Positions 2,361 through 63,642 are shown, counted from the stretch's first letter. The stretch is DNA of 64,000 bases from a virus (IMGVR_UViG_3300047666_001531); one strand, 5' to 3'. Made by a program: numbers and translations. The notes: a model not told the origin generated them from the letters alone.

Positions 2361-3418
2361 CATATGGATATGTTTGAAATGCAGGAAGCATTAATCACTT
2401 GGGTCACTAAGTGAAGCGTTTAAAACCAAAGCACAATATAACACGAGTAGGACTTACTCGTCACCTTTTGCACTCAGGATGAGTGCTATCGAATGGATTC
2501 GATACGACATAAATGGATTATGTCACAAGGAAATGTCAAATGGATTGGCATAAACCAACATAAAATGGATTTATCGCAGAACGGATATTGCGATGCTCAA
2601 GGATGGTAATGTTGGTTAAGGTTGGCATGAGGCCGGCTGTAATGGTCACCATGGAGGTGAATTCGGCAAGAAGCCGTTGATTTGTCATTATGATAAACCA
2701 TTACACAACATCAGCATGATGCAGATGTAGAAGCAAGAGCAAGATGCTCAAATCACATGATGTGATTGTCGCCATGGAGGCGTTTGCGGGTCGAGGCTTT
2801 CATGGAGAAGGTTTATGTAATAGAGCAGGGACGCTCGCCCTTACACGATGTATGGGTTCCTAGGCTGGGATTATTACAAAAATGGAGATACAAGCATGAT
2901 GCGACGTATCGAACCATTGGGCAGGACGCCTATATTGCATGATGCAGTATCGTCAGGAGACGAAATGGTTTCAGGGGTTGTTGCCAAGGAGGCGATTTCT
3001 GCAAGGATGCAGTCAACCAACATCTGCATGATGCGGATGGCGTACAGACCATTGATAGGTCAATCAACATGATGTTGTGGTCGCTAAGATGGCGAGTGTA
3101 CGCAGTAAGTGAGGCAAGGAGCCATTACGCTAAGGATAGCGTCACTTACGTCTAATTTAACGCAGCATCCAAGGATGGTTGTTGAGGGAGTTTAAAAAGG
3201 ACAAGGCAGCGATAGGATTCGCGTTTAATTATCATAGATGATAAGCCACCTACACAAGCAAGAAGCCTGTGTTGTATGACGGTCAAGGATGTTGCGCTTA
3301 ATGGATTAAGCGATCGTAATGGGATTCGAACGTCATACGAGTAAAGCTATGTGCCACACAAGTCACAAGTTAATCTAAGCTAAACGAGATAGGCACGTCT
3401 TTAGGCGTGCCTGTTTTT
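2361..3418 (+). ncRNA. CsrB/RsmB-like CsrA-sequestering RNA, unusually long (~1.05 kb)
   Basis: About 30 GGA trinucleotides, most in loops of short hairpins (e.g. GCACTC-AGGAT-GAGTGC 2470, TCACC-ATGGA-GGTGA 2646, ACGCT-AAGGAT-AGCGT 3127, CGCTTA-ATGGAT-TAAGCG 3296); no credible long ORF; candidate promoter TTGACG(2333)-19-TATCAT(2358); terminator at 3389-3418. 5' end approximate. Confidence 0.85.
3389..3418 (+). terminator. Intrinsic terminator of the CsrB-like RNA
   Basis: ATAGGCACGTC-TTTA-GGCGTGCCTGT then TTTT. Confidence 0.85.
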
Positions 3419-3435
3419 AATTCAGGATCCAGTTT

Positions 3436-3897
3436 ATGACCCAAAACACTCAAAATTCAAAAGAAAATTCATTGCCGCCTGTTGAAAACCATATTCTAAA
3501 AATGCTTTTAGGCCACACCCAACGCAGTTTGTCTGAAATTCGCAGTGGTGTTAATGAAAATAAAATTACGACATATAGCTACAATGAAATCAAAATGAAA
3601 ATATTTTCGTTGATTGAAAAAGGTTATGTTTTATATGGTGATAGAAGAACGCGTTTTAGTATAACGGACAAAGGCAAGGCTGTTGTTAGTGCTGAAAAGA
3701 TTATTGCTCACAGCAGTGATAACGAGATAATAAATGCGATCAACTCACTTAAAAGTAAAGTTTCCGTACCTGTGAAGCCAGTAGTGAGATCGCTAGAAGA
3801 TAAAGTGAGTACTCTTAAAACTGTGTCTGGTATTGCTGGTATGCCAAGCGACATCTCTCTTTTGTTAGAAGAGATATCGAAGGACATATCAGTTTAA
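3436..3897 (+). CDS. Hypothetical protein, possible winged-helix DNA-binding N-terminus
   Basis: 153 aa; helix pattern then LIEKGYVLY...RFSITDKGK, typical of a wHTH wing. Confidence 0.55.
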   Translation: MTQNTQNSKENSLPPVENHILKMLLGHTQRSLSEIRSGVNENKITTYSYNEIKMKIFSLIEKGYVLYGDRRTRFSITDKGKAVVSAEKIIAHSSDNEIINAINSLKSKVSVPVKPVVRSLEDKVSTLKTVSGIAGMPSDISLLLEEISKDISV

Positions 3898-4236
3898 TTA
3901 AATTCTTATATCGTTCAGGTTAATGCTATCAAATGCTGATTGATTGTCTTTGATAGCCATAGCCATTCTTTCTAGATAATCAGCCAATTTAAGTGCTGCC
4001 TCGCTTGCAGTAGCCTGATGCGGAAACTCTTTGTCATTTTCAATATCAATATCCAGAGATGCTTTCCATCCACGATGCTCATATTTTAAAACAGATATAG
4101 GAAGTTCAAGCGACACGCCAGATTTTGAGTGCAACCCTATAAATGTAGCTTTAAGCCCTGGCTTACAGAACGCTTCATGTCTATCACCGGTTCTTTCAAG
4201 AAGTTCCAGCTTATTTATTGTTATTAAAGTTGTCAT
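3898..4236 (-). CDS. Hypothetical protein
   Basis: 112 aa ORF, follows 4245..4544 as a likely operon. Confidence 0.65.
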   Translation of the reverse strand: MTTLITINKLELLERTGDRHEAFCKPGLKATFIGLHSKSGVSLELPISVLKYEHRGWKASLDIDIENDKEFPHQATASEAALKLADYLERMAMAIKDNQSAFDSINLNDIRI

Positions 4237-4244
4237 GGCGCTTC

Positions 4245-4544
4245 CTAAGGGAATAATTGATTTATGACAGAGCTAATCTCATCTTTGCTCACATCATTAG
4301 TGCTTAATGAGTACGAAGCTAAGTGTTCTTCTGCATCCGTATCCATGTCATCTATCTTCTGAGCAAGCAAGTCAAGTGCTGCTCTTACAATGCGATCTCT
4401 TTTAGGATTGTCATGCAATGTGTTCGTCTGAGTTACGGTAACACCTTCTTCACCGTTCAGTGAGTCAGTGACGATACGATCAATATCGTAAATTGTTTTG
4501 CCTTTCATTGAAATTTTTGCGGTTAAAACGTAATTATCTTTCAT
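4245..4544 (-). CDS. Hypothetical protein
   Basis: 99 aa ORF with GGGA RBS. Confidence 0.65.
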   Translation of the reverse strand: MKDNYVLTAKISMKGKTIYDIDRIVTDSLNGEEGVTVTQTNTLHDNPKRDRIVRAALDLLAQKIDDMDTDAEEHLASYSLSTNDVSKDEISSVINQLFP

Positions 4545-4673
4545 ACCAAATCCCTTTTGTAAATATGCCCTAATTCTAACACAAATGATGCTTTCGCCAA
4601 GGTTATTTGTTTAATTAATTACCCAAAACCAGACAGAAAACAAACAATAAAGTAAATAAATTAATAAAAAGGG

Positions 4674-4701
4674 TTGACAAAGATTGTCATTATGATAAAG
4701 T
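4674..4701 (+). promoter_or_regulatory. sigma70 promoter with palindromic operator in the spacer
   Basis: TTGACA(4674)-N4-TTGTCATTATGATAA(4684-4698); extended -10 TG-A-TAAAGT. Confidence 0.75.
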
Positions 4702-5055: not shown

Positions 5056-5287
5056 CCCCGATAACTCCGTAAAGCCCCCAAAAATAGACTGCATAATTGT
5101 GGTCTATTTTGCTTTAAGATGATAAAAACGTTCATAATTGACTTAGCACTTTTATTTTGATAACTTTATCGTGATAAAATAAAGCTGTTTAAACAGTTAA
5201 ACAAAACAACGGCTTTGGTAAAAAAGGATAGGGCAACCTTCCTACGTTTACTTGGCTTGATCAAAAACACTACATGGGAATACTAGT

Positions 5288-10004: not shown

Positions 10005-10134
10005 AAGCCATCAACTGCGTACATCTTTTGCATCTATGAAGTTTATAATATTACATTTGATAGTAAATGTCACGACATTTTTAATCAAAATGATAAAAGT
10101 TGAGTTGTTTTTGTTGGTGGTCGTCAGTTATTTA

Positions 10135-10162
10135 TTGACTTTGTGTTTCATTATGATAAAAT
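10135..10162 (+). promoter_or_regulatory. sigma70 promoter with operator
   Basis: TTGACT(10135)-N4-GTTTCATTATGATAA(10145-10159); -10 TAAAAT; second site TAATCAAAATGATAA at 10082. Confidence 0.75.
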
Positions 10163-12648: not shown

Positions 12649-12828
12649 TAAAACTACCTTTTTTATTATGATAAACTTGTAACTTCCGCTTCAATTTGAT
12701 AATGTCGTTTTGTAAAAGTAGGAAAAATCCTATGTAAAGCGTTATTTTGTTGAACTTGAGTGTTATTAAGTACGAGCACAATAATAGCTGATTATGCTTT
12801 TAAATAAGTTGTTGAAGTGAGGTTTACC

Positions 12829-13137
12829 ATGAATAAACATATTGATATAGGGGTACGGTCTTTATATGCGTCCGTGTGCGTCATATTGTTTTGTCTTGGT
12901 TTTATGGCAAACACCCAGACTGCTGCCTTTATCACTGCTGAAAACTATACTGCACTGATCCAAACTACCAGTCTTATTTTTGTTGGTGTTTCTGGGCTTT
13001 ATTTGTTTAAGTATTTTCACTTTTACAGTCAGCATGTGCTGAGTTCTTGGTTGAAACCAGCGGGTGTCTTTTCTTTAGTTGTTTTTCTACCAACTTGGAC
13101 AGATGCTTTAGCAATTTTTACAGCCGCCCCTTTTTAG
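12829..13137 (+). CDS. Hypothetical membrane protein (3 TM)
   Basis: GAGG RBS before ATG 12829; three hydrophobic segments. Confidence 0.65.
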   Translation: MNKHIDIGVRSLYASVCVILFCLGFMANTQTAAFITAENYTALIQTTSLIFVGVSGLYLFKYFHFYSQHVLSSWLKPAGVFSLVVFLPTWTDALAIFTAAPF

Positions 13138-13164
13138 TTTAGCTGTAAATAATGCTAATTAATG

Positions 13165-14166
13165 TTAGGCGGGAGAGCTAATCGCTTCCTGTTTTTTCTC
13201 TCGATATTGCAATGGCACTGTCGGTGTTGATAGTACATGCACCATATCGTCTGCCTGAATAATTCCGCTTAACTCTCCATCTTCATCTATTACGACTGTG
13301 ATGTGATCAGGGTTTTTATCCAGTTTATCGAAAACACTCATTAGTTCGTCGCTATCTTTCATTGCGGTCATTGGGTGCATGACAGAAATTACCGTATCAT
13401 CTAAGTTTTGTTCCAAAAACGCTTTTACGATTTTTCTGTATTGAAGGATACCAATAGGGTAGAGCTTGTCGTCGTGTTTTTTGACGACTACATAACGTTT
13501 GTGTTTACCATCTTTTACAATATGCTCAAGATCACCTACTCGCAATTCGCTATCAACATATTCAATGTCAACTACATCTGTCATGGCGTCACAAACCTTT
13601 AGTGATGTGATGTTGATGATGTTATCCATAAGTGCGGTTTGTCTTTGGCTGATAAGCGATTTACTTTCTGCCATGGCAATAACACTGCGTAATTCTGCGT
13701 GTGTCATTTTATTTCTACTGGCTTTCGGAATAAAAGGGCTGACCGGCATGTATATAACCGCTACAAAAGGTTTTAATAAGTAGTACATTGCAATAATGAT
13801 ACGCCCGAAGTTTTTAAGGACAGTGTCTGGGTGATATGTTGCATATTGTTTTGGGATTAATGTAGCGATGTATAATAAGGCTAACGTTAATGAAACAATG
13901 AATATAAAGTAATACGTAGATTGGCCGAACAGACTTACTGCCATAGCGCCAGAGATAGCCGCGCCACCAACATCAACGATATTGTTAGCAATGATGATAG
14001 TAGAAGAAACTGCCTGCCTTTTACTTTTAAGTTTTTTAAGGTGAGGTTGTTTCTGGATAAGCATATCAAGCTTGGTGCTACTACATGTTAGTAGACTGAT
14101 TTCAAATAGGCTCATGATCATAGATACTGAGATAAGCCCAATTGAAAATATAATTAAGTCGGTCAT
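13165..14166 (-). CDS. CNNM (DUF21) plus CBS-pair protein, CorC/hemolysin-like metal transporter
   Basis: SMIMSLFEISLL, IIIANNIVD, LIPKQYA TM motifs followed by two CBS domains. Confidence 0.85.
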   Translation of the reverse strand: MTDLIIFSIGLISVSMIMSLFEISLLTCSSTKLDMLIQKQPHLKKLKSKRQAVSSTIIIANNIVDVGGAAISGAMAVSLFGQSTYYFIFIVSLTLALLYIATLIPKQYATYHPDTVLKNFGRIIIAMYYLLKPFVAVIYMPVSPFIPKASRNKMTHAELRSVIAMAESKSLISQRQTALMDNIINITSLKVCDAMTDVVDIEYVDSELRVGDLEHIVKDGKHKRYVVVKKHDDKLYPIGILQYRKIVKAFLEQNLDDTVISVMHPMTAMKDSDELMSVFDKLDKNPDHITVVIDEDGELSGIIQADDMVHVLSTPTVPLQYREKKQEAISSPA

Positions 14167-14203
14167 TCATAAATCCTTTAATAATTAATAGCGTCGTCCA
14201 ACG

Positions 14204-14497: not shown

Positions 14498-14630
14498 AAC
14501 TGTTCCTTTTTATTAACTGTAATAAGTATACTAAACAATCAAGCGCAAGTCAACATAAATGATTAACAAAATTATCATAATGAAATATTCTGAAATGTGT
14601 ATATTGTGCTAAGATCTGCGGTATACATGG

Positions 14631-15545: not shown

Positions 15546-15596
15546 CAAAACACGTCATTGTGATAATATGTGAAGCATCAATCAAGAGGAAAGCAC

Positions 15597-17534
15597 ATGT
15601 CACTTTATACACACTTACAAGAAATATTAAAAAATGAATTCGGCGAATTACCCACTAAGGGTGTTTTAGCAGGCCAGGCGGTAGCGGAGGCTTATTTTAT
15701 TGCTGCCGGTGTTGATGTTAAGTCTCGTATGAAAGATTTGGATTGGTTTGTTGAGCGAGAAGATGAATTTGTTGAAACTCCGCGTTTTATGTCGGCAACA
15801 TCAATAACACCAGTAGTAGAGCTTTTTTGTCCAAGTCACGACGTTGATTTGAGAGTAGGTCAATTCGTTAAATATGGTTTGTACACCATTGTTACTTCTG
15901 ATGTGATTAACGGCGGTAGAATAAATCGTATTGTTGTTCAAGATCCCGCACGATGCAAAAAAATAACACCCATGGTTATATTGGATGGTTTTGATATAAA
16001 CTGTGCTGCCTGCGCTTTAGATTTAGATAATAAAACTGTGGTTCTGCACCCTAAGTTTATTGAGTTTTGCGAAACCAAAAAGTTGGATTTGATAAGTATT
16101 CATACGCCTTTAAGTTCTTTAATACGTATTATTGAGAAAAATTCATATATTGATGGTACGTCGGTAGATGTTCCAGAGCTAACTCGTATAGTGAGCAGCT
16201 GCATTTGGGCGCGTTACAGCGATTCTTACATGTCTTTTGAAGAAAGTACGATAGCAGCACCTAATGACTATAAAAGGGGCACTGGGATAACAACAGAGCG
16301 CTTTGACAAGCTAAGTGATGATGTTAAGTTTGTGCTTTTGGAAAATTTTGTTAAACATACGATTGTTCTGTCGGATGGTGGTGAGATATTCACATTTATT
16401 CCCAAGCAAGAGCCAAAGAGAATTAACACTCTTATTAGCGCCAAGCACATTGATGTTTCAGTTATTAGTTATTCGTTGGACTTTATGCGCAGCATAGCAT
16501 CTTTGAGTGACGTTGATTTTTTCAATACCGTTATATACCCACTAAATTCGCTATCGAGAATAGTAAATTTACCATGTAGTTTTGAAAGAATAGAAACATG
16601 CCTGACAGGGTTGGTGTTAAAAGTTGTTTTTGTTGATGGTGTGATGAAAATAAAAGATGCCCTTGCTGATTTACGTATTGAGGATACAATCTCTTTATTA
16701 GGGTATGGCAGTGAACTAAGTAAATCTAAAAAAGAGTTTTTTGCCGATGTTATTGAGAGCCTATATATGATTTACTTTTACGGCACTCAAACAACTGGTT
16801 TTAAAAGTAACGAGTGTTCCTTAGCTGCAATAAATGCGCTTTTAACTGATGTTACCACTTGGAGTGATGATACTGATTTTGAATACTACGGTAAGCTTTC
16901 ATTAAGAGTGAAGTTTGATTTAATAAACAAGATAACAAGCAGCCTTGATGGTCACCTTTCTGTTGGTTCTTTGTTGAGTGGCTTTATGAATGATGAAATA
17001 AGTCAAATAGAGGGTTTCAGTGATGTTGATTTTGGGTTTGATGAAAAAATCCAAAAGCTAACCGACACACAATATACAGTTTGGTTTCCTAAGACTTTAA
17101 AGGAAGTGATGAACGCGCCGTCTTACGACAACTTTAAACACTTTAATTATGCGACCTCGATCTTTATGGCTATTGATATTGACTATAAAGGCGAGCCTCT
17201 TCATATGATTTGTGAGGTTGTGTGGAATGAATTTTACGCCCGATATGATGTTATTTACCTATTTCAATATGATAACAATGAAAGGTACAGTGAGTTGAAC
17301 AGTGTTTTTAACGGTATTGCATTGCATGCAAAAGCAGAAATTAACCAAGAGATAAAATACAGCTGGAAAAGAATAAAAGCGCTTAAAAGGCAAGTGGTAG
17401 ATCAAATTGTCACGAGTTGGAAAGGGTTGGTTGAAATTATAAACGGGAAGAACAATCGCATAATGGAGTTAAATAATGCCATGGTGACTGTTCGTGAAGC
17501 GGCTAATGATAAAAGCGGAGATATTCCATTTTGA
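15597..17534 (+). CDS. Large hypothetical protein with Pol-beta-type nucleotidyltransferase-like N-terminus
   Basis: GVLAGQAVA...DLDWF...GFDINC pattern resembles NTase/poly(A) polymerase head motifs; promoter TTGACA 15542 and GAGGA RBS. Confidence 0.5.
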   Translation: MSLYTHLQEILKNEFGELPTKGVLAGQAVAEAYFIAAGVDVKSRMKDLDWFVEREDEFVETPRFMSATSITPVVELFCPSHDVDLRVGQFVKYGLYTIVTSDVINGGRINRIVVQDPARCKKITPMVILDGFDINCAACALDLDNKTVVLHPKFIEFCETKKLDLISIHTPLSSLIRIIEKNSYIDGTSVDVPELTRIVSSCIWARYSDSYMSFEESTIAAPNDYKRGTGITTERFDKLSDDVKFVLLENFVKHTIVLSDGGEIFTFIPKQEPKRINTLISAKHIDVSVISYSLDFMRSIASLSDVDFFNTVIYPLNSLSRIVNLPCSFERIETCLTGLVLKVVFVDGVMKIKDALADLRIEDTISLLGYGSELSKSKKEFFADVIESLYMIYFYGTQTTGFKSNECSLAAINALLTDVTTWSDDTDFEYYGKLSLRVKFDLINKITSSLDGHLSVGSLLSGFMNDEISQIEGFSDVDFGFDEKIQKLTDTQYTVWFPKTLKEVMNAPSYDNFKHFNYATSIFMAIDIDYKGEPLHMICEVVWNEFYARYDVIYLFQYDNNERYSELNSVFNGIALHAKAEINQEIKYSWKRIKALKRQVVDQIVTSWKGLVEIINGKNNRIMELNNAMVTVREAANDKSGDIPF

Positions 17535-20706: not shown

Positions 20707-20755
20707 ACTGATTCCTTAAGTTTCTAACACTATAGTACACTATTTACAAATAATG

Positions 20756-21994
20756 TCAATATGATAATGCTTTTTTGCCTCGCCATGGTGCAGATAAAAA
20801 TCTAGGGTTAATGACTTTATCGTCAAAGCGAACAAAAGAAGATCGAATGTATTCCCAAATCATATCGGTACATATCCAACGTCTACCATGTATTTCTGCG
20901 GCATGACCGGTTGTTAAGGTTCCACCAAATGGGTCACAAATAAGGTCGCCTTCTTGACTTAAAAATTTAACCAACTTTTCAGCTAAGGGTAATGGCATTT
21001 TTGCTGCGTGGGCTGGTATACCTAAAGTCTTTGCATACGCGGAAACGGCACGTCCTTCTTTGCAATAGTTTGAGAAGTTAAATACGTTCTGAGGGATTTT
21101 GCCTGCTGTTTCTTTACTGTAGCTGCCAACTTTTTTGACATATGCGCCATCGCCGTTAACAGCATGTTTTTTCGTGCCGCCGCTTCGCACAAATTTTAAA
21201 TGCTGTTCACTATGGGGTTCAAGTATTCGTTGATTGTTTGATATACAAGCAAGAGGGTCGTTTGTGAACCAGTAAATAGGTTCGTACCCTGTGTGCAGTT
21301 GATATCTGTTCTTAGACGCCCATTGATAGGGACCTGGTGGCTTGTTGGTGCAAGTCCATGGGATCCTGTCCATCAAGGACAAGCCTAATTCATCTTTAAA
21401 CTTGATCACTAGACGTTCGAGATAATCAGAGCGAGCAGGAGAACAGTCTTCGAAGATATCTTGTGAAAGGTTGATTGCGATGTTGCCGCCTTTTGCGAGT
21501 TTGGCAACTAAAGGCTCAAACGATTCAAGAATGAATTCAATGTATTTTGTTGTGCTCATATGTTCGCCATAGGCACGTTGAACTTTTAATGGATAAGGTG
21601 GCGATGTAATAATGGCATGTATTTCATCTTCAAGGATGTTGCTATCAAAAATAGTGCTAGATTTCGCCCAAATTGCAACGCCAAGTGACGTAGACATGGC
21701 CACCATATGGTTGGCTGCTTCAATGCTGTGAAGTTCGATGTTTTTTTTACCGGTGAGCTGCCAGTGTCCGCGCTTAATAGAACGTATAGAGCCGTCAAGC
21801 TTAAGGTTTTGTTGCGCCCAGCGTATCTTTCTATGTAATAGGTTTCGTTGGGTTTTGGATTTTCCTACGGGCTTTATTTCCGCTTGTACTCCAACCGCCT
21901 TTTGCACTTCGTTGTACACATGATCATTGGCAACAGCATCTTTTGTGTTGGCATATATATCAAGTAATATCCGTTCAATAGATGCTGTTTTCAT
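20756..21994 (-). CDS. Beta-class (likely N4-cytosine) DNA methyltransferase with Mrr_N-like N-terminal domain
   Basis: Motif IV TSPPY precedes motif I DPFGG; N-domain KIRWAQQNLKLDG...RGHWQLT; ATG 21994 has a GAGG RBS and avoids overlap with the upstream gene. Confidence 0.85.
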   Translation of the reverse strand: MKTASIERILLDIYANTKDAVANDHVYNEVQKAVGVQAEIKPVGKSKTQRNLLHRKIRWAQQNLKLDGSIRSIKRGHWQLTGKKNIELHSIEAANHMVAMSTSLGVAIWAKSSTIFDSNILEDEIHAIITSPPYPLKVQRAYGEHMSTTKYIEFILESFEPLVAKLAKGGNIAINLSQDIFEDCSPARSDYLERLVIKFKDELGLSLMDRIPWTCTNKPPGPYQWASKNRYQLHTGYEPIYWFTNDPLACISNNQRILEPHSEQHLKFVRSGGTKKHAVNGDGAYVKKVGSYSKETAGKIPQNVFNFSNYCKEGRAVSAYAKTLGIPAHAAKMPLPLAEKLVKFLSQEGDLICDPFGGTLTTGHAAEIHGRRWICTDMIWEYIRSSFVRFDDKVINPRFLSAPWRGKKALSY

Positions 21995-23012: not shown

Positions 23013-23256
23013 TTTTTTTGATCCCTTTAAATAGATGGCTTAATATTATCATATTGATAATTAAAGTCAAGCTATTATCATAATAAAACGAAGGTGGCAG
23101 TTGTGGTTTTCCGTGATAAAATACGATAAACGTCACAACGGATTGTGGCGCTTGGGGATTGATAAAGACTGCTAAAGCGTGTAGTATTTTGCCCCTATAT
23201 TATTTCACACAAGGGATGGCACGATGCCATGTCGTGTTTACTATGAAGGTATTGAT

Positions 23257-26480: not shown

Positions 26481-26547
26481 TTGACAAATAATTTCAAAAT
26501 GATAAGATGGTTGTCATAAAATACATACAACTCGAAAAGGCAAATTG

Positions 26548-28413: not shown

Positions 28414-28577
28414 TAGTGTAGTTGAACTGAAAAAAAAGCGTCCTTGATTGGGCGCTTTTTGCTTTGTGTTGTTTGATAATCAATTTTAAATTATCATAAT
28501 GAAATATTTTGGTGGACTTTTTGTGTGCGTGTGGTATACTTTATCATATTAAACAGTAGTATTTAAAGGGGCTTCCA

Positions 28578-29444: not shown

Positions 29445-29848
29445 GCTGCACAACCTACTTGTTGTTCGTCTTTAAGTGCGTTTATTTTGTCGATAATAAC
29501 TTTCGCATCAGTGAGTACATCTGAGAACATAAGATTATCTTCCAAGTTCAATATTGATTCAGCTGTTTTATCAAGGTTTGGTTTGTCTCTTGTACCCGCA
29601 AAAATGCCATCTCGAACAAAAGCAACTTTCAACTTGTTTATATCAAAATGATAATCAGAAAGAGCTTCTACCATTTCCCAACGGTAAGTCCTAAAAAACA
29701 GTCCTAACAACTTATCAGCCTTCCCACCTAGCTCTCGGTTAAAAACCAAGTCATTGTGGTGTGAGATTAGTTTCTCAGCTAGCTTTCGCGCAAGTATGCT
29801 TTTTTTACTTTCGTACATTTTCATAAATCCGATTAAAATGCTCCTCAT
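29441..29848 (-). CDS. Hypothetical protein
   Basis: 135 aa ORF. Confidence 0.6.
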   Translation of the reverse strand: MRSILIGFMKMYESKKSILARKLAEKLISHHNDLVFNRELGGKADKLLGLFFRTYRWEMVEALSDYHFDINKLKVAFVRDGIFAGTRDKPNLDKTAESILNLEDNLMFSDVLTDAKVIIDKINALKDEQQVGCAA

Positions 29849-31317: not shown

Positions 31318-31821
31318 TTATGCTTCAGCTTCTTCTTCAGATTCAGCCATTTCGAAAGCCATTTGCATAGATTCTAAAACTAGCTTTTGATCTATAGCTT
31401 TAAATGTTCTTAAATGAGCTGCCATCGCTGGGTCATATTTTTTGGTCATCGTTGCACGGTAAATTGTAGGCGTACTCTTACCAAAAATGATGCCGACGTT
31501 TTCATTGTTAGGTTGATACTGGAAAGAATCAATATAATCAAAGTAAACCCCAATATCCTGCTCTGGTTTTAATGGCGTTTTAAGCAATTTCGTAATGAGA
31601 GCATTAACCGATCGTTGATTTACCATGGTTAACGTTTCAATATGTCGGACAACCACTAATGGGATCTCAACATTCGAATCAACATTCAAATACTTATATA
31701 CGCTTTGAGCCGACTTGCCAAATAACGCAGCAATAGAGGGAACATCTTCTGCTAGCCCCCATTTGTGCATTAGCGTTATAAAGTCCGGCTTATCTAAATA
31801 AACTACAGCTTCTTTTGTCAT
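31318..31821 (-). CDS. Putative DNA-binding protein with two HTH-like repeats
   Basis: SIAALFGKSAQSVYKYL and NVGIIFGKSTPTIYRA; own promoter carries two operator copies. Confidence 0.6.
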   Translation of the reverse strand: MTKEAVVYLDKPDFITLMHKWGLAEDVPSIAALFGKSAQSVYKYLNVDSNVEIPLVVVRHIETLTMVNQRSVNALITKLLKTPLKPEQDIGVYFDYIDSFQYQPNNENVGIIFGKSTPTIYRATMTKKYDPAMAAHLRTFKAIDQKLVLESMQMAFEMAESEEEAEA

Positions 31822-31932: not shown

Positions 31933-31973
31933 ACATTATCATATTGAAAATTATTGTCAAGTCATTATGATAA
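31933..31973 (-). promoter_or_regulatory. Promoter of 31318..31821 with tandem operators
   Basis: Minus strand TTGACA(31960-31955)-N4-TTTTCAATATGATAA-TGT; second site AAGTCATTATGATAA 31959-31973. Confidence 0.7.
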
Positions 31974-32069: not shown

Positions 32070-32097
32070 TTGACAAAATGATAAAGCGTGATAAATT
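32070..32097 (+). promoter_or_regulatory. Promoter of tRNA operon 1
   Basis: TTGACA(32070)-16-TAAATT(32092) with TG extension; -35 overlaps operator-like TTGACAAAATGATAA. Confidence 0.75.
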
Positions 32098-35087: not shown

Positions 35088-35192
35088 CTATAGCTCTATT
35101 ATCATAATGAACAGACAAAAACAGGCTTAGGCCTGTTTTTGTGTGCTTGTGATAAATTAATATAATAGATAATTTGGATAAGGATATTTGTT

Positions 35193-37362: not shown

Positions 37363-37690
37363 ATCTATTAGCTCCCTTAATTAGAATATGTATAGGTAAT
37401 TAGCAAGAATACCGTCCACAAGAACCTTCAAAGTAACACTAACGCGCTGTTATATCAAGCGTCATTAAGTACATATACCATGTGCTTAATAGGTATTATA
37501 AGTAATATATATATCGAATTAAAATAAAAAAACAGATCTGGCTGTTTTTCGCCTTACTGGGTTATCGTATGATTACGGTGTTTAGTGTTGTTTAAAACTC
37601 ATTCACACCAACCCTAAAGCAACAATAAAAGATTGACAAGCTTATCATAATGAAATAATATAGCTATATAGATCACTTGGAGCTTTACAC

Positions 37691-40321: not shown

Positions 40322-40394
40322 TCTTTAACATAATTTCATAATGATAACCCTTGGTTTAACCGTTAAGGGTTGTCAATATTAGCTATTAGCTGCT

Positions 40395-40851: not shown

Positions 40852-41523
40852 ATGTTAAAAGCAGTGATGTTGATGATCATGATGATTTCGCTAACAAGTA
40901 AAGCAGAAGTAGTTATCGAACTCAACGGCTTTTATCATAATGAAAGTGACCTTAATTTGTCAATAAAAAATAAAGTTTTATTTGATATAGCTTTGGCTAA
41001 TCGCGTTTTACGAGCGCATAACATAGATGGTTATAGGTTTAAGTTAGGTGGGTGGGTGTCCATTAAGCTAAAGCGAGAGCGTTTTTACCGTGAATCGCTT
41101 GATGGTGAAGCTCACATGGCCTATGTTACTATAAAGTCTAAAGATAGGGGTGTGAGGCGTTTAGATTTCTATGTGAGAGGGTACTTTCCATCTATTGATG
41201 GTGATGTAAGAGGTGTAGCTGTACAAGGCGGGGAGTTCTTTGCCTTTACTTATCAAGATAGCACCAAACAATACTATACGTTTTTGCATGAGCTTTTTCA
41301 TATGATAGGTTTGGGTGAATCATCATTGACGTATGCTAAGCCCTATGCGTGTGGTTCAAAGGTGACTTTGATGGATGAAAGGTATCTGCCTAAGGAAAGC
41401 AAATCATTTTATCTTTCCGATCCGAATGTTACTGTGAATGGTCAACGATGTGGGCACGAAATTCATTATGATAATGCGAGAAGACTACGTGAGCTGTTAG
41501 TAGAAAGATTTGGTAAAAGCTAA
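40852..41523 (+). CDS. Secreted zinc metallopeptidase-like protein
   Basis: Signal peptide; TFLHELFHMIGLGE; downstream Met-turn-like TLM. Confidence 0.7.
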   Translation: MLKAVMLMIMMISLTSKAEVVIELNGFYHNESDLNLSIKNKVLFDIALANRVLRAHNIDGYRFKLGGWVSIKLKRERFYRESLDGEAHMAYVTIKSKDRGVRRLDFYVRGYFPSIDGDVRGVAVQGGEFFAFTYQDSTKQYYTFLHELFHMIGLGESSLTYAKPYACGSKVTLMDERYLPKESKSFYLSDPNVTVNGQRCGHEIHYDNARRLRELLVERFGKS

Positions 41524-41641
41524 TGACTAGACTTCCTTAAGATGTTATCATATTGAAATAAAATGAAAGGGAAAACAACTTTGGTGTTATTGCCTCAGGG
41601 TAATAACGAGATGTATCCATAATTAACTACTGAGATTTAAG

Positions 41642-45677: not shown

Positions 45678-45763
45678 GTATTTAATTGTTCGTGGTGATG
45701 GATATTTACTCTTTTGTGATAAGTTTGTTTATGTGAAAAACAATTTAGCAAAGGAATGCTGTC

Positions 45764-52018: not shown

Positions 52019-52134
52019 ATAGCTCTTATTTTATCATGTGTGAGTTTTTTGACCCTAAATCACATACACCTATTGATATCAAAATGAATTTCAATTATCA
52101 TAATGATAATAATTGATGTTTTTTTTGGAAGCTT

Positions 52135-52965
52135 ATGCGCAGTATTATGGTTTTTCTTTTGTCCTTTGTATTGATCTCGTGCTCAGATGGTGAAAGTTCG
52201 GTAACGGGTTCTTTAATGATGCTTTGTCGCGATGGCGGCAATAAGGATATTTGTGATTTAACTCACGATGGCGCTATGTGTGGTGTGGTACGTGCAGACA
52301 CTACTCGTGCAATGGTTATCCAAAAGCGAGACAAAACCTCTAACAATGGTTACCAAGCGCTCGTTGCACTTGATGAGTACAAAGGGTGTTTGGAAAATGC
52401 AGTGTTGGCACAAAGTGAAAGAAACCGTTCAAACGAAATATCAAGATTTGAAGCAATACAGAACATCCCCGATTATCAAAATAAAATAATTAGTGAAACA
52501 AAAGGTGCAAGGCCAGAAATAAATTTATGGCTATACAAGGAGACTGGTGATGATATCCACTGGGAGTCCATGTTAAATGGTGTGCCTTTAGCGAAAGACA
52601 TTCATCCTGATGTTTATACGTATATGATTGCAGAGGCTACCAATAGAGACATAGAGGAAGCTAAAAAGCTAGCTGACACGTTATTATACAAAAACAAACT
52701 AATAAGCGACCTCCCTGCTGATCTTTACAGTTTTTATACATTATATTATCTGAAGAAAAACAATATTTTCAAGTCTGCTGTTTGGCAAGGGTTGTATGCT
52801 CAGTTTGTTCAGAACAAAACAAGTATTAATCATGAATATTTTGAGCGTTACGAAAAAACGAACCTTAGGGAAATTAAAAAAGCCCAAGCTGTTGTAGACG
52901 ATCTAATTTTTGATATGAATTGGAAAGGTATGGAAATAGCGGATATACCTAAAAGTATGATTTAA
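52135..52965 (+). CDS. Lipoprotein, DUF2989-like
   Basis: Lipobox LISC; LC...ICDLTHDGAMCGVVR pattern. Confidence 0.6.
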   Translation: MRSIMVFLLSFVLISCSDGESSVTGSLMMLCRDGGNKDICDLTHDGAMCGVVRADTTRAMVIQKRDKTSNNGYQALVALDEYKGCLENAVLAQSERNRSNEISRFEAIQNIPDYQNKIISETKGARPEINLWLYKETGDDIHWESMLNGVPLAKDIHPDVYTYMIAEATNRDIEEAKKLADTLLYKNKLISDLPADLYSFYTLYYLKKNNIFKSAVWQGLYAQFVQNKTSINHEYFERYEKTNLREIKKAQAVVDDLIFDMNWKGMEIADIPKSMI

Positions 52966-54405: not shown

Positions 54406-54596
54406 TATTGCTCTCACTATGTTAATTTAAAATGATAATATCATAAACAAATACGTTTTGGAACATTTTTGATTTATTTTGATAATAAATGTTCGACTCC
54501 ATCTGCGCTTAACTATTCTTTGTTTTGGCGAAGAAAACGCAAAAAATTAAGTTATGATAACGGGATAAAATATTTGCTTATAAAAGGAATTTGAGC

Positions 54597-56897
54597 ATGA
54601 AGAAAGCTTTTTTGCCATTGGCTGTATCTCTACTGTTACCTATGTACGTAGCCGCTAGTCAAGATAATCATACGTTGAGTGATGCGGTGCCTCCATCAGA
54701 CACCAATACCACTCCGTCATTTCAACAATTACTGGAAATGAAAAACAATGCTCAAAAAAGCACTTCCATACAGGGGCAATCCAATGATGTTAACGTCCAA
54801 CGTATCCTTGTTTTTTACCAACCATCTTATGCAGATAAATTCGGTATTGACGTTATTCATAAGCGTATTGAAAAGTCGATACTAAATGACTATCAAAACG
54901 TGGCCGGTGAAGGTAGGTTGATTGAAATTGTTGATATTCTACCACTGACCAGTGTTAGTGATACTTTGCCATATGGTGACCGTATTGACTTGAGTGGTGA
55001 TTTGGTTCAGCTTGGGTACAATTATATTAATGATTTTTTCCCAGATATTTACGATATTCTTGGTGTAGGGCTTGATGAGAACAAACCAGAAGGTCAACTA
55101 ACGTTAAAGCATGAGCCAGACTTGGTAACGATTTTCAGAGACAGACGCCCAGATGAAGGTGGCCTTTTAGGTCTTGGTGTTGTCACTGGAAGAAATACAC
55201 TTATTTTCGATAGTGGTAGTGGTATAAGCACACCTGACGAATATAATGTGTTGACGGTTCTCGTGCCTCATGAGTTTGGTCACAATCATGGCCTTAGTCA
55301 TGAGTTAAACGCAACGAACTTAGATGACGGTAGTAGTCCTGTTGACGAAAGCGGAAACTACACATTTAACCATGCAACTCAATGCGGCGATGCAGTAACG
55401 CTAATGTGGTCTACATTAAGCGACACGACAGAAGTTTTAGATTTCTATTCATCCCCTGAGAAATACCATAAAGGTGAGGTTTGTGGTCGTTATCCGGACA
55501 ATGTATTAAGCTTAAATGGTGCTTACAATCAGTGGTACTACGATCTTTATTATGAGCATGCATTTTCGAAAAGCGCATCATCAATACCAGCACCTGGCAG
55601 CAAAGTGTCATTTTTAGAAGACAGTCTTTCTGTTTCAGAGAGCGAAGGTAAATTTACCTTTAATGTAGTTCGTGAGGGTGATTTGTCTAAAGAAGCTCAC
55701 GTGTATGTTCGAGTGACGGACAATGGTGCCGCGAGTTATCCTGAAGATGTCATAGACTACAAAGCCAAAGCGTTTTTCGGTGTTGGCGAAAGTAATGCTG
55801 AAATAACGTTTGCGGTAATGCAGGATATGTTAGAAGAAAATTCAGAGGTTTTAGAGCTAGAACTGGTGTATCCGTTCAACACGTCAGATTCAAGCGAAAC
55901 TTTGCAAGTCCGTATAAATGATAGCTTTGTACCTATTGAGAGTCGTGGTGTGGTTTCATTAGTGCCGCCGAGTGTTCCTGTGGTAGAGGGTGGTGTGGGA
56001 TACATTGAATTCGAAAGGGTAGGTGGCAGTAAAGGGGATATACTGATCTCCCTTCGCCCAGAGTACTATTTGTTTGAAGATACAGGTCTAACAGCTCACG
56101 AAACAGAGGTTGGTGCTCATTTTACTACAACCGAAGGTCGTGATTACTTAATGCCAAACAGTTTGGTTGTGTTTAGAGATGGCCAGAAAACGCTAAGAGT
56201 GCCGGTGCAAACACTTGATGATTTAGATCCAGAACCGATAGAGGGGTTAACGTTAACGCTAGCCTCGTTGAGTGGAGATGTGATCGAAGTTAAGGAAAAT
56301 ACCAATGGTGCCATGTTGATATCAGATGACGATGCTGAAAGAGCGGGTGTTATTGCCATAGAATCAGACACACTTGATATCAATGAGTCTGACAAAGACA
56401 TCAACTTTAAAGTTTTTCGGGATTTAGATTTTGAAGGTGGCGTACCCTTCGATGTAATAATAAAGGTAAACTTCACTGGCGGCATAGAGCCTCAAGTGAT
56501 AAAGCTTAGAAATTCTTTTGAGGAAAAGTTTGATTACGATCCGATTCAAGACGGTGCTGCTGAACAGGGTGGCTATGAAGCTGTTAAGTACTTTACTCAC
56601 GAACTACGAGCGACCCCTCTATACTATGGTGATTATACGGTCGAAGTTTCTGTTGTTAGCTTGATTGATAATGGGCTTGTGGATCCAGATAAAAACCGCC
56701 TTGTGTTTAATGTTCAAAATGATAAAAATCCGCCGTTGAGCGAAAACACTTATCCGAGTAAAAAAGGAGAAAGTGGTGGCACTATGAATATAGTGTATCT
56801 CTTGGCAATAGGCGCTGTAGTTGGATTTCGTGCAAGAAAAAAAAGTAAAAAAAAGGGTGTAAAACGTATCTTAATCGGGTATGCTTTCTCTCGTTAA
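54597..56897 (+). CDS. Surface metallopeptidase (reprolysin-like) with Calx-beta domains and GlyGly-CTERM anchor
   Basis: Signal peptide; HEFGHNHGLSH; Calx-beta motifs (VSESEG...VVREGD, ATxGxDY-like, DDxxxEPxEGL); C-terminal SGGTMNIVYLLAIGAVVGFRARKK. Confidence 0.85.
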   Translation: MKKAFLPLAVSLLLPMYVAASQDNHTLSDAVPPSDTNTTPSFQQLLEMKNNAQKSTSIQGQSNDVNVQRILVFYQPSYADKFGIDVIHKRIEKSILNDYQNVAGEGRLIEIVDILPLTSVSDTLPYGDRIDLSGDLVQLGYNYINDFFPDIYDILGVGLDENKPEGQLTLKHEPDLVTIFRDRRPDEGGLLGLGVVTGRNTLIFDSGSGISTPDEYNVLTVLVPHEFGHNHGLSHELNATNLDDGSSPVDESGNYTFNHATQCGDAVTLMWSTLSDTTEVLDFYSSPEKYHKGEVCGRYPDNVLSLNGAYNQWYYDLYYEHAFSKSASSIPAPGSKVSFLEDSLSVSESEGKFTFNVVREGDLSKEAHVYVRVTDNGAASYPEDVIDYKAKAFFGVGESNAEITFAVMQDMLEENSEVLELELVYPFNTSDSSETLQVRINDSFVPIESRGVVSLVPPSVPVVEGGVGYIEFERVGGSKGDILISLRPEYYLFEDTGLTAHETEVGAHFTTTEGRDYLMPNSLVVFRDGQKTLRVPVQTLDDLDPEPIEGLTLTLASLSGDVIEVKENTNGAMLISDDDAERAGVIAIESDTLDINESDKDINFKVFRDLDFEGGVPFDVIIKVNFTGGIEPQVIKLRNSFEEKFDYDPIQDGAAEQGGYEAVKYFTHELRATPLYYGDYTVEVSVVSLIDNGLVDPDKNRLVFNVQNDKNPPLSENTYPSKKGESGGTMNIVYLLAIGAVVGFRARKKSKKKGVKRILIGYAFSR

Positions 56898-60076: not shown

Positions 60077-61156
60077 TTACGGGGTTACTGATATTTGTTT
60101 TAAAGATTTTTTACAAATACGTTGGTTGTTTATGTAGAAAAGAAATTGCCCTTTAGAGATAATTTCCGTGTCATTCGGGTTGATTTTAAGTTCATTGGCC
60201 AGCCGATCATTTGAGACACCAATAAGCATGGCACCTATTTGTTGTGAAAAAATAGATTTAATTTCCCCAAACGTCATTCTGAGCAGTTGAAGTTGTTCAA
60301 GCACATCAGTAGCTTCGACAATGTAAGTGGTTTGTTCAAAGCCATTAGTTAAAAGCTGGTCAAACAGCATAGATGTGCCATTGTCCTGCATTGATTTAAC
60401 TAATTGTTCAGATCGGTGCGGCGTAGTGACTTCAATAGGTAATTTAAGCCCCCTGAGAGTTTTTGCCGCTTCTTCGTCAGTGATATGAGTGGTGATGTAC
60501 CCGCCATCATTTATAGATGTAGCGTAGTGAACAGAAAGTTTAAAGCTCTCAGCATCCGTTTCACCACAGACAATAATCTTTTCGGCTGCTACTACCGCCA
60601 TCTTGTGCATTGATATTTCAGAAGTGTAGTCGTCAAGATTAATGTAGCCAATATCTGGTTCGTCAGGGTAAGGGTGTTTGTGACCATCATCTGATGCTAT
60701 GAGGATAAAACGTTTAGTTCTATTTTCGTCAGCGAGAATTAAATCTACAAGTCTATTGGTTTTTCTAGGCTCATAACCCACGATCAGAATGTGTTTGCTT
60801 AAATGTGAAAAGTCTCGTTTGCCGTTCATAAGCTTATTTCTACCTTCAATAAATAAATTAGCCACTTTCCCCAATATCATCGCGAAAAGAGATAGGCCGA
60901 TAGTTAAAATAAAAAACGCTGTAAAAATTTTTCCGGCTGGAGTGATAGGGGATATATCACCATAGCCAACCGTGCTACAAGTAACTAAATACCAATAGAT
61001 AAATTCGGTGTAGCTAGATGTAATGGTGTATTCACCAAGAAGCCTTAAACCCACATAGCTTGCTGCTGCATGTAGAGTTGTGATAGTCAGTATGGTCAAC
61101 AAGGACACTTCACTGATGATCCGCTTAAATCTTAATACTAAAGGTTTTAACTGCAT
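60077..61156 (-). CDS. Potassium channel family protein (Ion_trans_2 plus RCK)
   Basis: YWYLVTCSTVGYGDISP selectivity filter; HILIVGY Rossmann start; start codon uncertain (ORF open to 61294). Confidence 0.9.
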   Translation of the reverse strand: MQLKPLVLRFKRIISEVSLLTILTITTLHAAASYVGLRLLGEYTITSSYTEFIYWYLVTCSTVGYGDISPITPAGKIFTAFFILTIGLSLFAMILGKVANLFIEGRNKLMNGKRDFSHLSKHILIVGYEPRKTNRLVDLILADENRTKRFILIASDDGHKHPYPDEPDIGYINLDDYTSEISMHKMAVVAAEKIIVCGETDAESFKLSVHYATSINDGGYITTHITDEEAAKTLRGLKLPIEVTTPHRSEQLVKSMQDNGTSMLFDQLLTNGFEQTTYIVEATDVLEQLQLLRMTFGEIKSIFSQQIGAMLIGVSNDRLANELKINPNDTEIISKGQFLFYINNQRICKKSLKQISVTP

Positions 61157-61586
61157 GTATAAAAAATCCAAAAACTCGTTTAGGCATAGGTGGAAATCAG
61201 CGCATCTTGCACTTTCAATTGCCGTCGTTATATTGACGTCATAACCTATGAATACTTGAGAATCAAACCACTGTTCCTTCAATGTTGAATCCACTTAAAT
61301 TGAGCAAGTGCTTTCAACTCCTACCACCTGATTGATACGAATAAGCCTTTTTAATATAACTAGTCGTTCAAGTGATTTGTTGGTGTGACCAAATAATAAC
61401 ACAATCGTTAAGCCATCTTCATTGATAGCGAACGTATTGTCACATTGAGAATAATTATACCCTTTTATACTGGTTGATTTCAACGAATTATTTTATCAAA
61501 ATGAAAATAATTGAAAGATTTAATTGTAGTTACCAACAAAAAAGCCCCTACATTGCTGTGAGGGGCTTTTGTTTTTGTTTTGAGAA

Positions 61587-62243: not shown

Positions 62244-62265
62244 AGTATTACTCCTGTAATGTCGA

Positions 62266-62676
62266 TTAGGCTTGTTTATTAATAAATCCGTCTTTAGCTA
62301 CTTCGTGCAGCTCAAGAGCGTTTTCCGCAAGAATATCCAATTCAAGCACGATGTTTTCAAAAATGGTGCTAGCGGCCATTTGTCCAGATAGTGCATAAAT
62401 GGCTTCGCCATCTGCATTGTCATAAATTGATACGTTACTCATAGGCAATGTGTCATTCATGCGTAGGAACGCTTCATTAATACGAGCTGGGTTTACCGCT
62501 GCGTTTACAGGGTATAAATCTACTTTCATTACGATTTGGCTTTCACCTACAGAAATGAGGATTGGTAGATCGCCGTGCTCTTCCATTGTTGCTAGAATTA
62601 TCTCGCCATGCAACTCAACATTTGCACCTTGTTTTTTTAGGGCGGATAATAATTCCATTGTATTCCATTTCTTCAT
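62266..62676 (-). CDS. YjfI/DUF2170-like protein
   Basis: EEHGDLPILISV...QI, FLRMN...PMSNVSI, YALSGQM; sits directly upstream of a PspA gene as in yjfI-yjfJ. Confidence 0.75.
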   Translation of the reverse strand: MKKWNTMELLSALKKQGANVELHGEIILATMEEHGDLPILISVGESQIVMKVDLYPVNAAVNPARINEAFLRMNDTLPMSNVSIYDNADGEAIYALSGQMAASTIFENIVLELDILAENALELHEVAKDGFINKQA

Positions 62677-62980
62677 TTGTAAACCTCAAAAGTTAGTTTA
62701 TTGCTAATTGATGTGACTAATATGACACATGAAAACGGAACTCACCAAAATAGGGCGCAATAATGCCTTTATTGTTGATGTGCTATTGTAATTCGACACT
62801 TTTATTGTCAAATTGGTTGTTGTTTCAATGTGAACGGAGAATATGTTACTGACCAAAGGTGGTGTAGTCAATGTTTAACGAACGTGCGTTTTAAAATGAT
62901 AATGCGACCCGTGTCGAAAACGTCACGCGTTGTATTTGTTTCTTTTTCGTATAAGATAAGCGGAAACAAGGAGAGCTTCA

Positions 62981-63565
62981 ATGATCATAGATGATGAGAT
63001 ATGGGTAACCCTAAGCAGATACTTGATTAGCCTGCTTAAAGCAAAATATAAAGAAAAGCACAATATAGAAAAATTTGAATATGAGGACATGGTTAAGTTG
63101 TTAGCTAAGAATGGCACGCCAATAACCAATGTTGCGTTGAGAAAAAAAGTGTCGAGAGGGCGTTTTTCGGCTCAATTTCTATTGCAGTTAATTTTGGCAC
63201 TTGATGTTGATTTAAGCTCAAGTGAAATAAAGGACGTGCTCAACAACAGCAGAGTTATTCTTTCGCTCATTAATAATGCTAATGCTAATAGAGGGAAGGG
63301 TGGTGATCACGCACTGATAGCCAATATGCTTAGGGTTGCTATGAATGTTGTGGAACTGTCAGGGCAATACCCTCAAGTTAATCGGCTCAGAGAAGCTTCG
63401 TTGGTTTTCCCTTATAGAAGTGTGTTGAGCGAACAGGTAGCGAGTAAGTTAAGTGATGATGACTTGTTTACATTATCTCTTTTCGATGAACTTCCTCACG
63501 AAGAAAAAGATGCGGTGATGAAAGCGTTTGGTGAGTTCTTATTTAATGGTACTCAAAAGGCATAG
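62981..63565 (+). CDS. Protein with DUF6471-like DNA-binding N-terminus
   Basis: LKA...YEDMVKLL...G...T...LRKKVSRGRFSAQFLLQLILAL. Confidence 0.6.
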   Translation: MIIDDEIWVTLSRYLISLLKAKYKEKHNIEKFEYEDMVKLLAKNGTPITNVALRKKVSRGRFSAQFLLQLILALDVDLSSSEIKDVLNNSRVILSLINNANANRGKGGDHALIANMLRVAMNVVELSGQYPQVNRLREASLVFPYRSVLSEQVASKLSDDDLFTLSLFDELPHEEKDAVMKAFGEFLFNGTQKA

Positions 63566-63577
63566 TTGTACGCACTG

Positions 63578-63642
63578 ATTTATTTACTACATCCTTGAGC
63601 AACCAACAGCTTTCATTATGATAATTTATTTACTACATCCTT
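63578..63642. repeat. 19-bp direct repeat flanking an operator copy
   Basis: ATTTATTTACTACATCCTT at 63578-63596 and 63624-63642; CTTTCATTATGATAA at 63610-63624. Confidence 0.85.

Follow-up and report, generated by a model that had tools for sequence, protein, structure and literature searches.

A short inverted-repeat word recurs inside about thirty predicted promoters of a giant marine plasmid-like replicon, sampled here by the 64-kb stretch IMGVR_UViG_3300047666_001531 (hereafter the window), and the likeliest role for it is to dock a repressor. The region read comprises about 82 kb, the window plus about 18 kb of flanking DNA, of a replicon of about 580 kb. In its strict form the word is the 12-mer TCAWWWTGATAA, which lies within the 15-mer nTTTCAWWATGATAA and is built around a core dyad TCA-N3-TGA. 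From these sequences, we think it probable that the word is the operator of a dedicated DNA-binding protein. We also favor, with somewhat less assurance, a trans-acting repressor encoded by the replicon itself, most likely the 167-residue protein P0089 (31318..31821, minus strand), which would occlude the promoters and repress its own gene.

The word is greatly over-represented in the window. A search with TTATCAWWWTGATAA allowing up to two mismatches returned 24 matches versus 1.7 expected from shuffles, with 0 of 100 shuffles reaching 24; the core TCAWWWTGA matches 32 times where about 6 matches are expected, and a position weight matrix places 32 positions at ≥12 bits versus 1.1 expected. 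Strict TCAWWWTGATAA sites number 25 (27 when counted per strand), and 17 of them fall in the 12.4% of the window that crude gene calls leave as noncoding (binomial p = 1.5e-10). The original prediction for this window had asked whether the motif might be equally common in coding DNA, and it is instead strongly biased toward noncoding DNA. Two further strict sites (2682 and 10145) lie inside doubtful open reading frames (ORFs); eight copies are found in ORFs or at ORF ends. The 21 15-mers listed in that prediction are all present at their coordinates, four of them in degenerate form (12660, 15552, 23075, and 32070), and about ten copies had been missed: those at 1218, 12688, 20753, 28541, 40932, 41460, and 52076 and the ORF-internal 17261, 29640, and 56711. 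The predicted consensus, TTATCA-WWW-TGATAA, describes the perfect palindromes at 23046 and 52095, which are the only full palindromes, but not the sites as a whole, which when oriented give the asymmetric consensus nTTTCAWWATGATAA, with one arm nearly always TGATAA and the other TGAAAn or TGACAn. Alignment of all sites leaves about 0.1 bit of information directly outside the 15-mer, a sharp drop that marks a self-contained word and not a longer repeated module. The word continues into the flanks, with 3 copies in 9.5 kb on one side and 3 in 8.7 kb on the other, some of them in canonical promoter geometry; the replicon-wide reach of the original prediction is thereby seen across the about 82 kb read.

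Relative to promoters, which are throughout sequence predictions of the sigma70 type, the word adopts two fixed registers. In class A (TTGACW-N4-site), the last TAA of the word opens a TAAnnT -10 element and its TG takes the position of an extended -10, as in TGnTATAAT, with the TG one base 5' of a TAnnnT hexamer that lies 16 to 17 bp from a TTGACA-like -35. The TTGACW-N4-site geometry previously proposed from the -35 elements at 4674, 10135, 15542, 23070 (minus), 26481, and 31960 (minus) is real at each of them. The corresponding sites are 4684..4698 (plus; TTGACA 4674-4679), ahead of a 96-residue ORF and a TonB-dependent receptor gene; 10145..10159 (plus; TTGACT 10135-10140, -10 TAAAAT); 15552..15566 (plus; TTGACA 15542-15547), a degenerate copy with a TTG center ahead of a 654-residue ORF; the perfect palindrome 23046..23060, for the minus-strand promoter with TTGACT at 23070-23065; the ligA operator 26491..26505 (plus; TTGACA 26481-26486, N4, site, TAAGAT); and 31936..31950 (minus), which fills the spacer and -10 of the P0089 promoter (TTGACA 31960-31955, N4, site, TAATGT). 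In class B, the word is flipped yet still fills the spacer, displaced by one to two bases, in the order -35, N3, TTATCAWWWTGAAA, TAnnnT. This arrangement is found at 14572..14586 (minus), between divergent genes and class B for the plus promoter (TTAACA-17-TATTCT), and at 37642..37656 (minus), in a C5-methylase promoter (TTGACA 37633-37638, 17 bp, TAATAT), as had been noticed before for the flipped site near 37633. The gap is N3 at both and N2 at the third such site, 41545..41559 (minus; -10 TAAAAT), ahead of 41642-42049 and two ORFs of 1180 and 1410 residues.

Elsewhere the word occurs in pairs. The 5'-3' exonuclease gene has one operator directly upstream of the -35 (28491..28505, minus) and a degenerate partner 50 bp downstream, directly past the -10 TGgTATACT (28541..28555, minus). 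In the P0089 promoter, a second operator (31959..31973, plus) abuts and overlaps the -35, 23 bp from the first. The palindrome at 23046, between a divergent nuclease/methyltransferase operon (minus) and the ribonucleotide reductase (RNR) gene (plus), has a degenerate partner TTATCATAATAAAAC 29 bp away (23075..23089, minus). Further pairs are 10082..10096 (plus), 63 bp upstream of 10145; 12660..12674 (plus), with TTA for TCA, and 12688..12702 (plus), 28 bp from it and upstream of 12817-13137; and the perfect palindrome 52095..52109, between divergent genes 51320-52018 (minus) and 52135-52965 (plus), with a weaker partner 19 bp away (52076..52090, minus). The sites at 28491, 31959, and 20753 lie outside any -10, and together with the flipped sites (14572, 37642, and 41545) they are not explicable by contacts of RNA polymerase.

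To follow the word through evolution, we compared five loci in relatives reached through the NAD-dependent DNA ligase at 78 to 50% identity. At the ligA promoter, the stretch from the -35 through the TCAnAATGATAAnAT block, TCA included, does not vary among five lineages, the most distant with a 53% identical ligase, whereas the flanks diverge, and operators are kept at the same promoters in relatives with 53 to 71% identical ligases. The pairs at nuclease/RNR, at the exonuclease gene, and at the gene for the 166- to 167-residue protein keep position and spacing (29, 49 to 51, and 23 bp, respectively) in loci L004, L005, L006, and L010, the exonuclease and P0089 pairs and the class A site at 31936 being recognized in the last three of these. 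Sites that are degenerate in the window can be intact elsewhere: the partner at 23075 is a full TCATAATGA in L004 and L005, and that at 28541 is a full site in L006. Core counts in the relatives' loci are 5 to 15 versus 1 to 2 expected. The motif is absent from a Rheinheimera metagenome-assembled contig with a 51% identical ligase (1 core match versus 1.9 expected), and L008, a ligase relative without the motif, has no P0089-type gene in its 22 kb. Judged by these comparisons, a word that is invertible, variable in position, pair-forming, and footprinted is operator-like and unlike a polymerase contact, in line with the earlier view that it is not just promoter sequence. One relative, L010, a lineage with P0093, has its NAD-ligase called as two ORFs of 331 and 309 residues (12944-14810) behind a promoter that keeps a canonical class A operator; the split may reflect a frameshift, gene decay, or misassembly.

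The word was also counted in controls for base composition. Two large marine gammaproteobacterial plasmids that encode a 37 to 38% identical ligase and have GC contents of 0.41 and 0.39 (39% in the window) contain one copy of the 12-mer (Shewanella plasmid pSx1, 268 kb) and none (a Photobacterium plasmid, 319 kb), and three whole genomes of 2.9 to 3.9 Mb contain 15 to 34 copies each, a background level of about 5 to 9 per Mb. Word density in the window (27 strand-wise in 64 kb) is 50 to 80 times higher than in these controls. A 28-bp pattern that joins promoter and operator gave, among the matches listed for GTDB genomes, scattered single matches in unrelated taxa. Six Psychrobacter genomes (L016, L043, L047, L062, L080, and L081) and many Flavobacterium genomes each match in one place, again among the matches listed, and these may be conserved orthologous promoters rather than chance. 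A literature search for the word pair retrieved unrelated operators only.

Among the genes that the original prediction had put forward as regulators, 31318..31821 emerges as the best candidate, on the strength of a double-domain model, its lineage range, and the pair of operators in its own promoter. Its product, P0089, has two tandem XRE/Cro-C1-type helix-turn-helix (HTH) domains, recognized by a repeat motif and an AlphaFold model; the repeat is a duplicated [IV][AG]xxFGKSxxS[VI]Y[KR] followed by HLxT. Pfam returns for P0089 and its homologues only sub-threshold HTH matches, all on residues 25 to 47, the best being HTH_22 at 17 to 22 bits (cut-off 29.6) and HTH_23 at 16 bits (cut-off 24.6); P0089 also lies below the HTH_3/HTH_XRE gathering score, and a hidden Markov model search against PDB sequences found no relative. 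A language-model look-alike search, taken as a lead only, points to HTH/Cro-C1/CII proteins (score about 0.9). A first AlphaFold model from six close sequences was discarded (predicted local distance difference test score, pLDDT, 44.6); the model made with distant homologues has a pLDDT of 91.5 and a predicted template modeling score (pTM) of 0.87 and consists of two five-helix domains. In an exhaustive structural comparison, the N-terminal domain neighbors Aca10, Aca1, MqsA, HigA, C.EcoT38IS, C.Kpn2I, C.BclI, and the 434 and P22 repressors, nearly all its neighbors being XRE-type HTH DNA-binding proteins, and the C-terminal domain neighbors CUT/POU-type domains. Full-length matches in AFDB clusters are annotated as "XRE family" or "HTH cro/C1" proteins (template modeling score 0.5 to 0.6), and the ESM Atlas agrees. 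The modeled P0089 thus has the five-helix lambda-repressor-like fold, in which helices 2 and 3 would form the HTH.

The distribution of P0089 follows that of the word. The protein is better conserved than the ligase (84% versus 71% in L005 and 72% versus 65% in L006), its family amounts to about nine clusters among 1.8 billion representatives, no homologue was found in PLSDB, and none was found in GTDB genomes by a protein-pattern scan with two N-terminal peptides only; the family is confined to this plasmid lineage. Its own promoter carries two operators in every lineage, and two word copies also precede the gene on L009 (41% identity) and L013 (49%, gene split), short and otherwise unrelated contigs that encode distant homologues; the TCATTGTGATA variant of the site at 15552 recurs in the promoters of such homologues. 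Conservation across the family extends to the HTH recognition helices and matches that of the operator core; with both conserved, no covariation between them was seen in distant homologues. The P0089 gene is always convergent with a C5-methylase gene (30002-31042 in the window; also in L005, L006, L009, L010, and L013), the product of which has 342 residues in close relatives, 414 on L009, and at least 329 on L013; no nuclease or restriction gene was seen beside the pair. The DNA that follows the P0089 gene differs in a 444-kb metagenome version of the replicon (L002 15600-21866 versus window 32000-38000), where a RecD2-like helicase gene, a VPA1267-family gene, and an Integrase_2 gene replace the window's gene order, a difference that points to strain-level replacement beside the tRNA array. 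Over 22.5-42.4 kb, metatranscriptome contigs align with the tRNAs and with portions of the P0089 gene, the runs having been chosen by that gene and transcript starts not being resolvable in them. Taken together, these comparisons make P0089 a plausible repressor of the word, an identification that we hold tentatively and with nearly as much reason for as against.

Several observations weigh against this reading. The structural neighbors of P0089 are individually weak (VIA scores with Z of 4 to 5.5 and a root-mean-square deviation of 1.9 to 3.4 over 45 to 76 residues), and Foldseek against the PDB gives nothing at E ≤ 0.001. A word in its own promoter is not peculiar to P0089, being shared by ligA and others; indeed many genes carry the word there, so that an autoregulation-like layout is not unique. 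Further weak HTH candidates lie at 34692-35087, 62981-63565, and 3436-3897, and the DNA inspected is about 82 of about 580 kb. Another factor of the replicon, either one of these small proteins or one encoded outside the window, could therefore bind the operator, with P0089 merely among the genes regulated. We regard this as unlikely, given that no other candidate has the word upstream of its own gene and that only for P0089 do a confident model with two HTH domains, a range across lineages like that of the motif, and operator pairs in distant homologues come together. A host protein, Fur or another chromosomal regulator through which the replicon taps a host signal, is a less probable binder still. 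The Fur box is GATAATGATAATCATTATC, or in 7-1-7 form TGATAAT-N-ATTATCA, and the word resembles it in the hexamer TGATAA/TTATCA and in its position over promoters: ATGATAA and TCATTAT are common to the sites and the Fur consensus, the sites match that consensus at 9 to 15 of 19 positions (≥12 being the top 0.3% of window positions), and one target operon holds the TonB-dependent receptor. The arms of the word are nevertheless everted (TTATCA-N3-TGATAA) around a 3-bp gap, the best alignments to Fur are split between two registers, conservation ends with the 15-mer where Fur would need 19 bp, and the targets are mostly genes of DNA metabolism, with the one receptor operon as the fit to iron. The doubt about Fur voiced in the original prediction was therefore well placed. 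Against any host factor, the word is nearly absent from the two large marine gammaproteobacterial plasmids, is at background in the three genomes, and has a range that seems to follow the plasmid lineage rather than a host group. The motifs of ArgR, FNR, CRP, IHF, DnaA, LuxR/HapR, SahR, and PhoB and omega-type heptads were compared by eye, and none appears to fit the spacing and orientation of TCA-N3-TGA.

The word might also have no dedicated regulator and represent the house style of strong promoters, that is, an extended -10 (TGaTAAnnT) with a copied spacer, or extended -10s placed back to back. TGATAA does correspond to TGn followed by the first bases, TAA, of a -10 element, the asymmetric sites mostly face the downstream gene, and both perfect palindromes lie between divergent genes. 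Moreover, TGATAA serves as an extended -10 in promoters that lack the TCA arm (5172, 23114, 32089, and 35150), and these TGATAAAAT-type elements imply that conservation of the right arm is partly a matter of promoter function, a further point against an operator. Promoter style leaves the left arm unexplained, however. TCA is invariant at a spacer position for which no polymerase contact is known in sigma70 promoters, and of the 45 noncoding TGATAA hexamers, 20 have TCAWWW directly before them, versus an expectation of about 0.2; positions after TGATAA carry nearly no information overall; and the word occurs flipped in the same spacer, upstream of a -35, downstream of a -10, and in gaps without a promoter. 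We judge this explanation improbable, on a par with a host regulator. Least probable of all, to the point of being remote, is a role outside transcription, be it as ParB/KorB-like partition sites, nucleoid-organizing sites, or the recognition sequence of a methylase. Consistent with such a role, the sites at 35099 and 40333 have no recognizable promoter, which also counts against a promoter operator, eight copies are in ORFs or at ORF ends, and the replicon is rich in orphan methylases; yet the fixed -35/-10 registers and the conserved promoter-bracketing pairs speak for transcription, the word contains no C5-methylase-like target, and its noncoding bias is unlike that of restriction-modification sites.

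In the mechanism that we favor, repression by a replicon-encoded protein, the repressor, most likely P0089, would bind the TCA-N3-TGA dyad and its flanks, whose arm centers lie about 9 bp apart, a distance that would suit two HTH units in successive major grooves. In the forward register (TTGACA-N4-site, -10 TAAnnT), the TGATAA arm would double as the TGn extension and the first three -10 bases; the flipped register would read TTGACA-N3-TTATCAWWWTGAAA-TAnnnT; elsewhere, two copies would bracket the promoter, as at the exonuclease gene (about 50 bp), or cover -35 and -10, as at P0089 (23 bp) and nuclease/RNR (29 bp). Because the site fills the spacer and -10 or brackets the promoter, a bound protein would block RNA polymerase. 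Ligase, exonuclease, nuclease, several methylases, possibly RNR, and many uncharacterized genes would in this way come under common negative control, and the doubly covered P0089 promoter would be subject to negative autoregulation. Even in flipped sites the consensus stays asymmetric, for which the -10 then gives no reason, and a single chain carrying two different HTH domains would fit this; a dimer is just as possible. The establishment or stress programme suggested in the original prediction is a conjecture about what such control might serve. A stronger proposal would have an undescribed family of single-chain double-XRE-HTH repressors read the asymmetric TCA-N3-TGATAA in either direction, with well over 100 promoter-embedded copies controlling much of a 0.58-Mb chromid-like plasmid, chromosome-like DNA-metabolism genes included, as the largest plasmid-encoded single-operator regulon known. 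We think this more likely wrong than right, though not far-fetched.

The remaining copies of the word are more varied in placement. Those at 1218..1232 (plus, upstream of 1320-1919), 61493..61507 (minus, upstream of the minus-strand genes 61295-61483 and 60077-61294), and 63610..63624 (plus, downstream of a DUF6471 gene and upstream of 63802-63993) lie ahead of genes, and 2682..2696 (plus) lies within a long noncoding stretch previously read as a CsrB-like RNA. At 20753..20767 (plus), a copy conserved in L004 sits at the stop codon of an N6/N4 methylase gene and overlaps a -35-like hexamer (TTGAC) that would serve the next gene on the minus strand. The two copies for which no obvious promoter was seen are 35099..35113 (minus), flanked by the 34692-35087 stop codon and a terminator-like hairpin, and 40333..40347 (plus), in a tail-to-tail gap beside a hairpin. 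Copies in ORFs are 40932..40946 (minus), in the annotated 5' end of ORF 40852-41523 and associated with TTGACA-18-TATGAT reading toward 40395-40760 (minus); 41460..41474 (plus), near the 3' end of the same ORF; 17261..17275 (plus), a full-strength copy inside the 654-residue ORF; 29640..29654 (plus), inside ORF 29441-29848; and 56711..56725 (plus), near the 3' end of ORF 54591-56897 and 200 bp before the next gene. The tRNA operon, formerly counted as a direct target, is a doubtful one: the TTGACA of 32070..32084 (plus) is the -35 of its promoter (TTGACA-16-TGaTAAATT), the right arm alone matches, and the site at 31959 is 110 bp upstream. A palindrome that varies the word, TTATCATAGATGATAA, whose center spans 4 bp instead of 3, is found at 3229-3244 in the long noncoding stretch upstream of 3436-3897. 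A second promoter flavor, (C/T)GTGATAAAnT, an extended -10 without the TCA arm, occurs at 5164-5185, 23106-23125, 32081-32100, 35142-35165, 45709-45730, and 29964-29985 and suggests that many promoters of the replicon are not under this operator. The RNR leader (23105-23215) follows the operator pair and includes a separate extended -10, TGATAAAAT, that lacks the TCA arm, as well as CACAAcggATTGTG-type palindromes, which in L005 are CACTATATTGTG and ACACATATATAGTGT, about 33 bp apart. These resemble a pair of NrdR boxes, and RNR may therefore be mainly under NrdR rather than the operator. Another perfect palindrome, ATGGCAcgaTGCCAT, spans the RNR start codon (23215-23230), is conserved in L005 and L006, and may be a translational or RNA-structure element.

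The replicon that harbors the word is a plasmid- or chromid-like element of about 0.58 Mb from polar seawater and sea ice. Identical proteins are found on metagenome contigs of up to 444 to 583 kb, and the DNA itself occurs in sea-ice and seawater metagenomes. The window encodes 23 tRNAs, the RNR large subunit, dihydrofolate reductase, NAD-ligase, a 5'-3' exonuclease, an NS-type nuclease, several DNA methylases, and the TonB-dependent receptor. The flanks (L011 11000-20585 and L012 1-8700) encode Rho, RecX, the RNR small subunit, an IS605-type TnpB, PspA, DsbD, and a metallophosphatase, a chromosome-like cargo that supports a chromid-like nature. The window has no close DNA-level relatives among phage records or PLSDB plasmids. 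The two very large ORFs (1180 and 1410 residues; 42095-49996) downstream of the flipped operator at 41545 belong to no Pfam family and have no match in phage records. We considered a phage origin and rejected it, as the 1410-residue protein lacks such a match and IMG/VR contains no relative of the ligase; the only matches to phage DNA are on the RNR gene and, at higher identity, at positions that are presumably tRNAs. A parallel in replicon type is with the Alteromonas mediterranea 'chromids' pAMCP48-600 and pAMCP49-600, which are likewise marine gammaproteobacterial, about 600 kb in size, and carry tRNA genes and housekeeping-like genes, with a low coding density and a 'chromosome module' that includes a DNA ligase; the passages of that report consulted describe no such regulon (PMC5217437). 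Giant marine plasmids and chromids consist mostly of uncharacterized genes, and an operator word with a candidate repressor gives a direct handle on how their cost is kept low. The word would mark promoters and transcription units in unannotated DNA and would group uncharacterized genes with ligase, exonuclease, nuclease, and methylases as one coregulated set, and the compact trio of promoter, operator, and repressor is testable in E. coli.

Two groups of known regulators bear on these findings. Some XRE-type repressors recognize 4-N3-4 palindromes, as in the ACCT-N3-AGGT of MqsA, and the controller (C) proteins of restriction-modification systems bind paired C-boxes. MqsA, C.EcoT38IS, C.Kpn2I, and C.BclI are among the structural neighbors of the P0089 N-terminal domain, and the likeness extends to short inverted triplets or tetrads three A/T bases apart, two adjacent operators in the gene's own promoter, and a methylase neighbor. 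C proteins, however, are single-domain proteins of about 80 to 100 residues that control one restriction-modification operon, whereas P0089 has two domains in 167 residues, its C5-methylase neighbor is convergent rather than cotranscribed, no restriction gene is adjacent, and the word heads about 30 unrelated promoters; we therefore set aside P0089 as a controller protein. The closer analogy is with the kor regulons, namely the KorA/OA operators of IncP-1 plasmids (RK2/RP4), KorC of IncP-1 and of the IncU plasmid RA3, and the ArdK/StbA/KorA network of the IncW plasmid R388, in which a short palindrome placed over the -10 or -35 of many promoters is bound by a small, plasmid-encoded, self-repressing HTH repressor. 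Here too, a single inverted-repeat word recurs across the promoters of one replicon much more often than chance would allow and overlaps core elements of the predicted promoters in two spacer registers and in bracketing pairs. P0089, with operator pairs in its own promoter in all lineages, would be the candidate for a replicon-encoded autorepressor. Unlike those systems, the replicon uses another word, and P0089, which shows no homology to KorA, KorB, or KorC (generic sub-threshold HTH in Pfam and no PDB sequence match), has two HTH domains per chain. The present system also has about 30 sites in 82 kb versus the 7 OA sites of RK2, lies on a replicon about 10 times larger, and includes chromosome-like targets (ligase, the RNR region, and exonuclease). 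By analogy, then, its mode of action would be that of the kor-type regulons on IncP-1, IncU, and IncW plasmids, with a regulator that is not a sequence member of those families. It is probably a new example of the known plasmid control of many genes at once, with a previously undescribed candidate protein; if P0089 is confirmed, it would represent a new double-HTH repressor family and extend kor-type control, so far a matter of 60-kb plasmids, to replicons of half a megabase.

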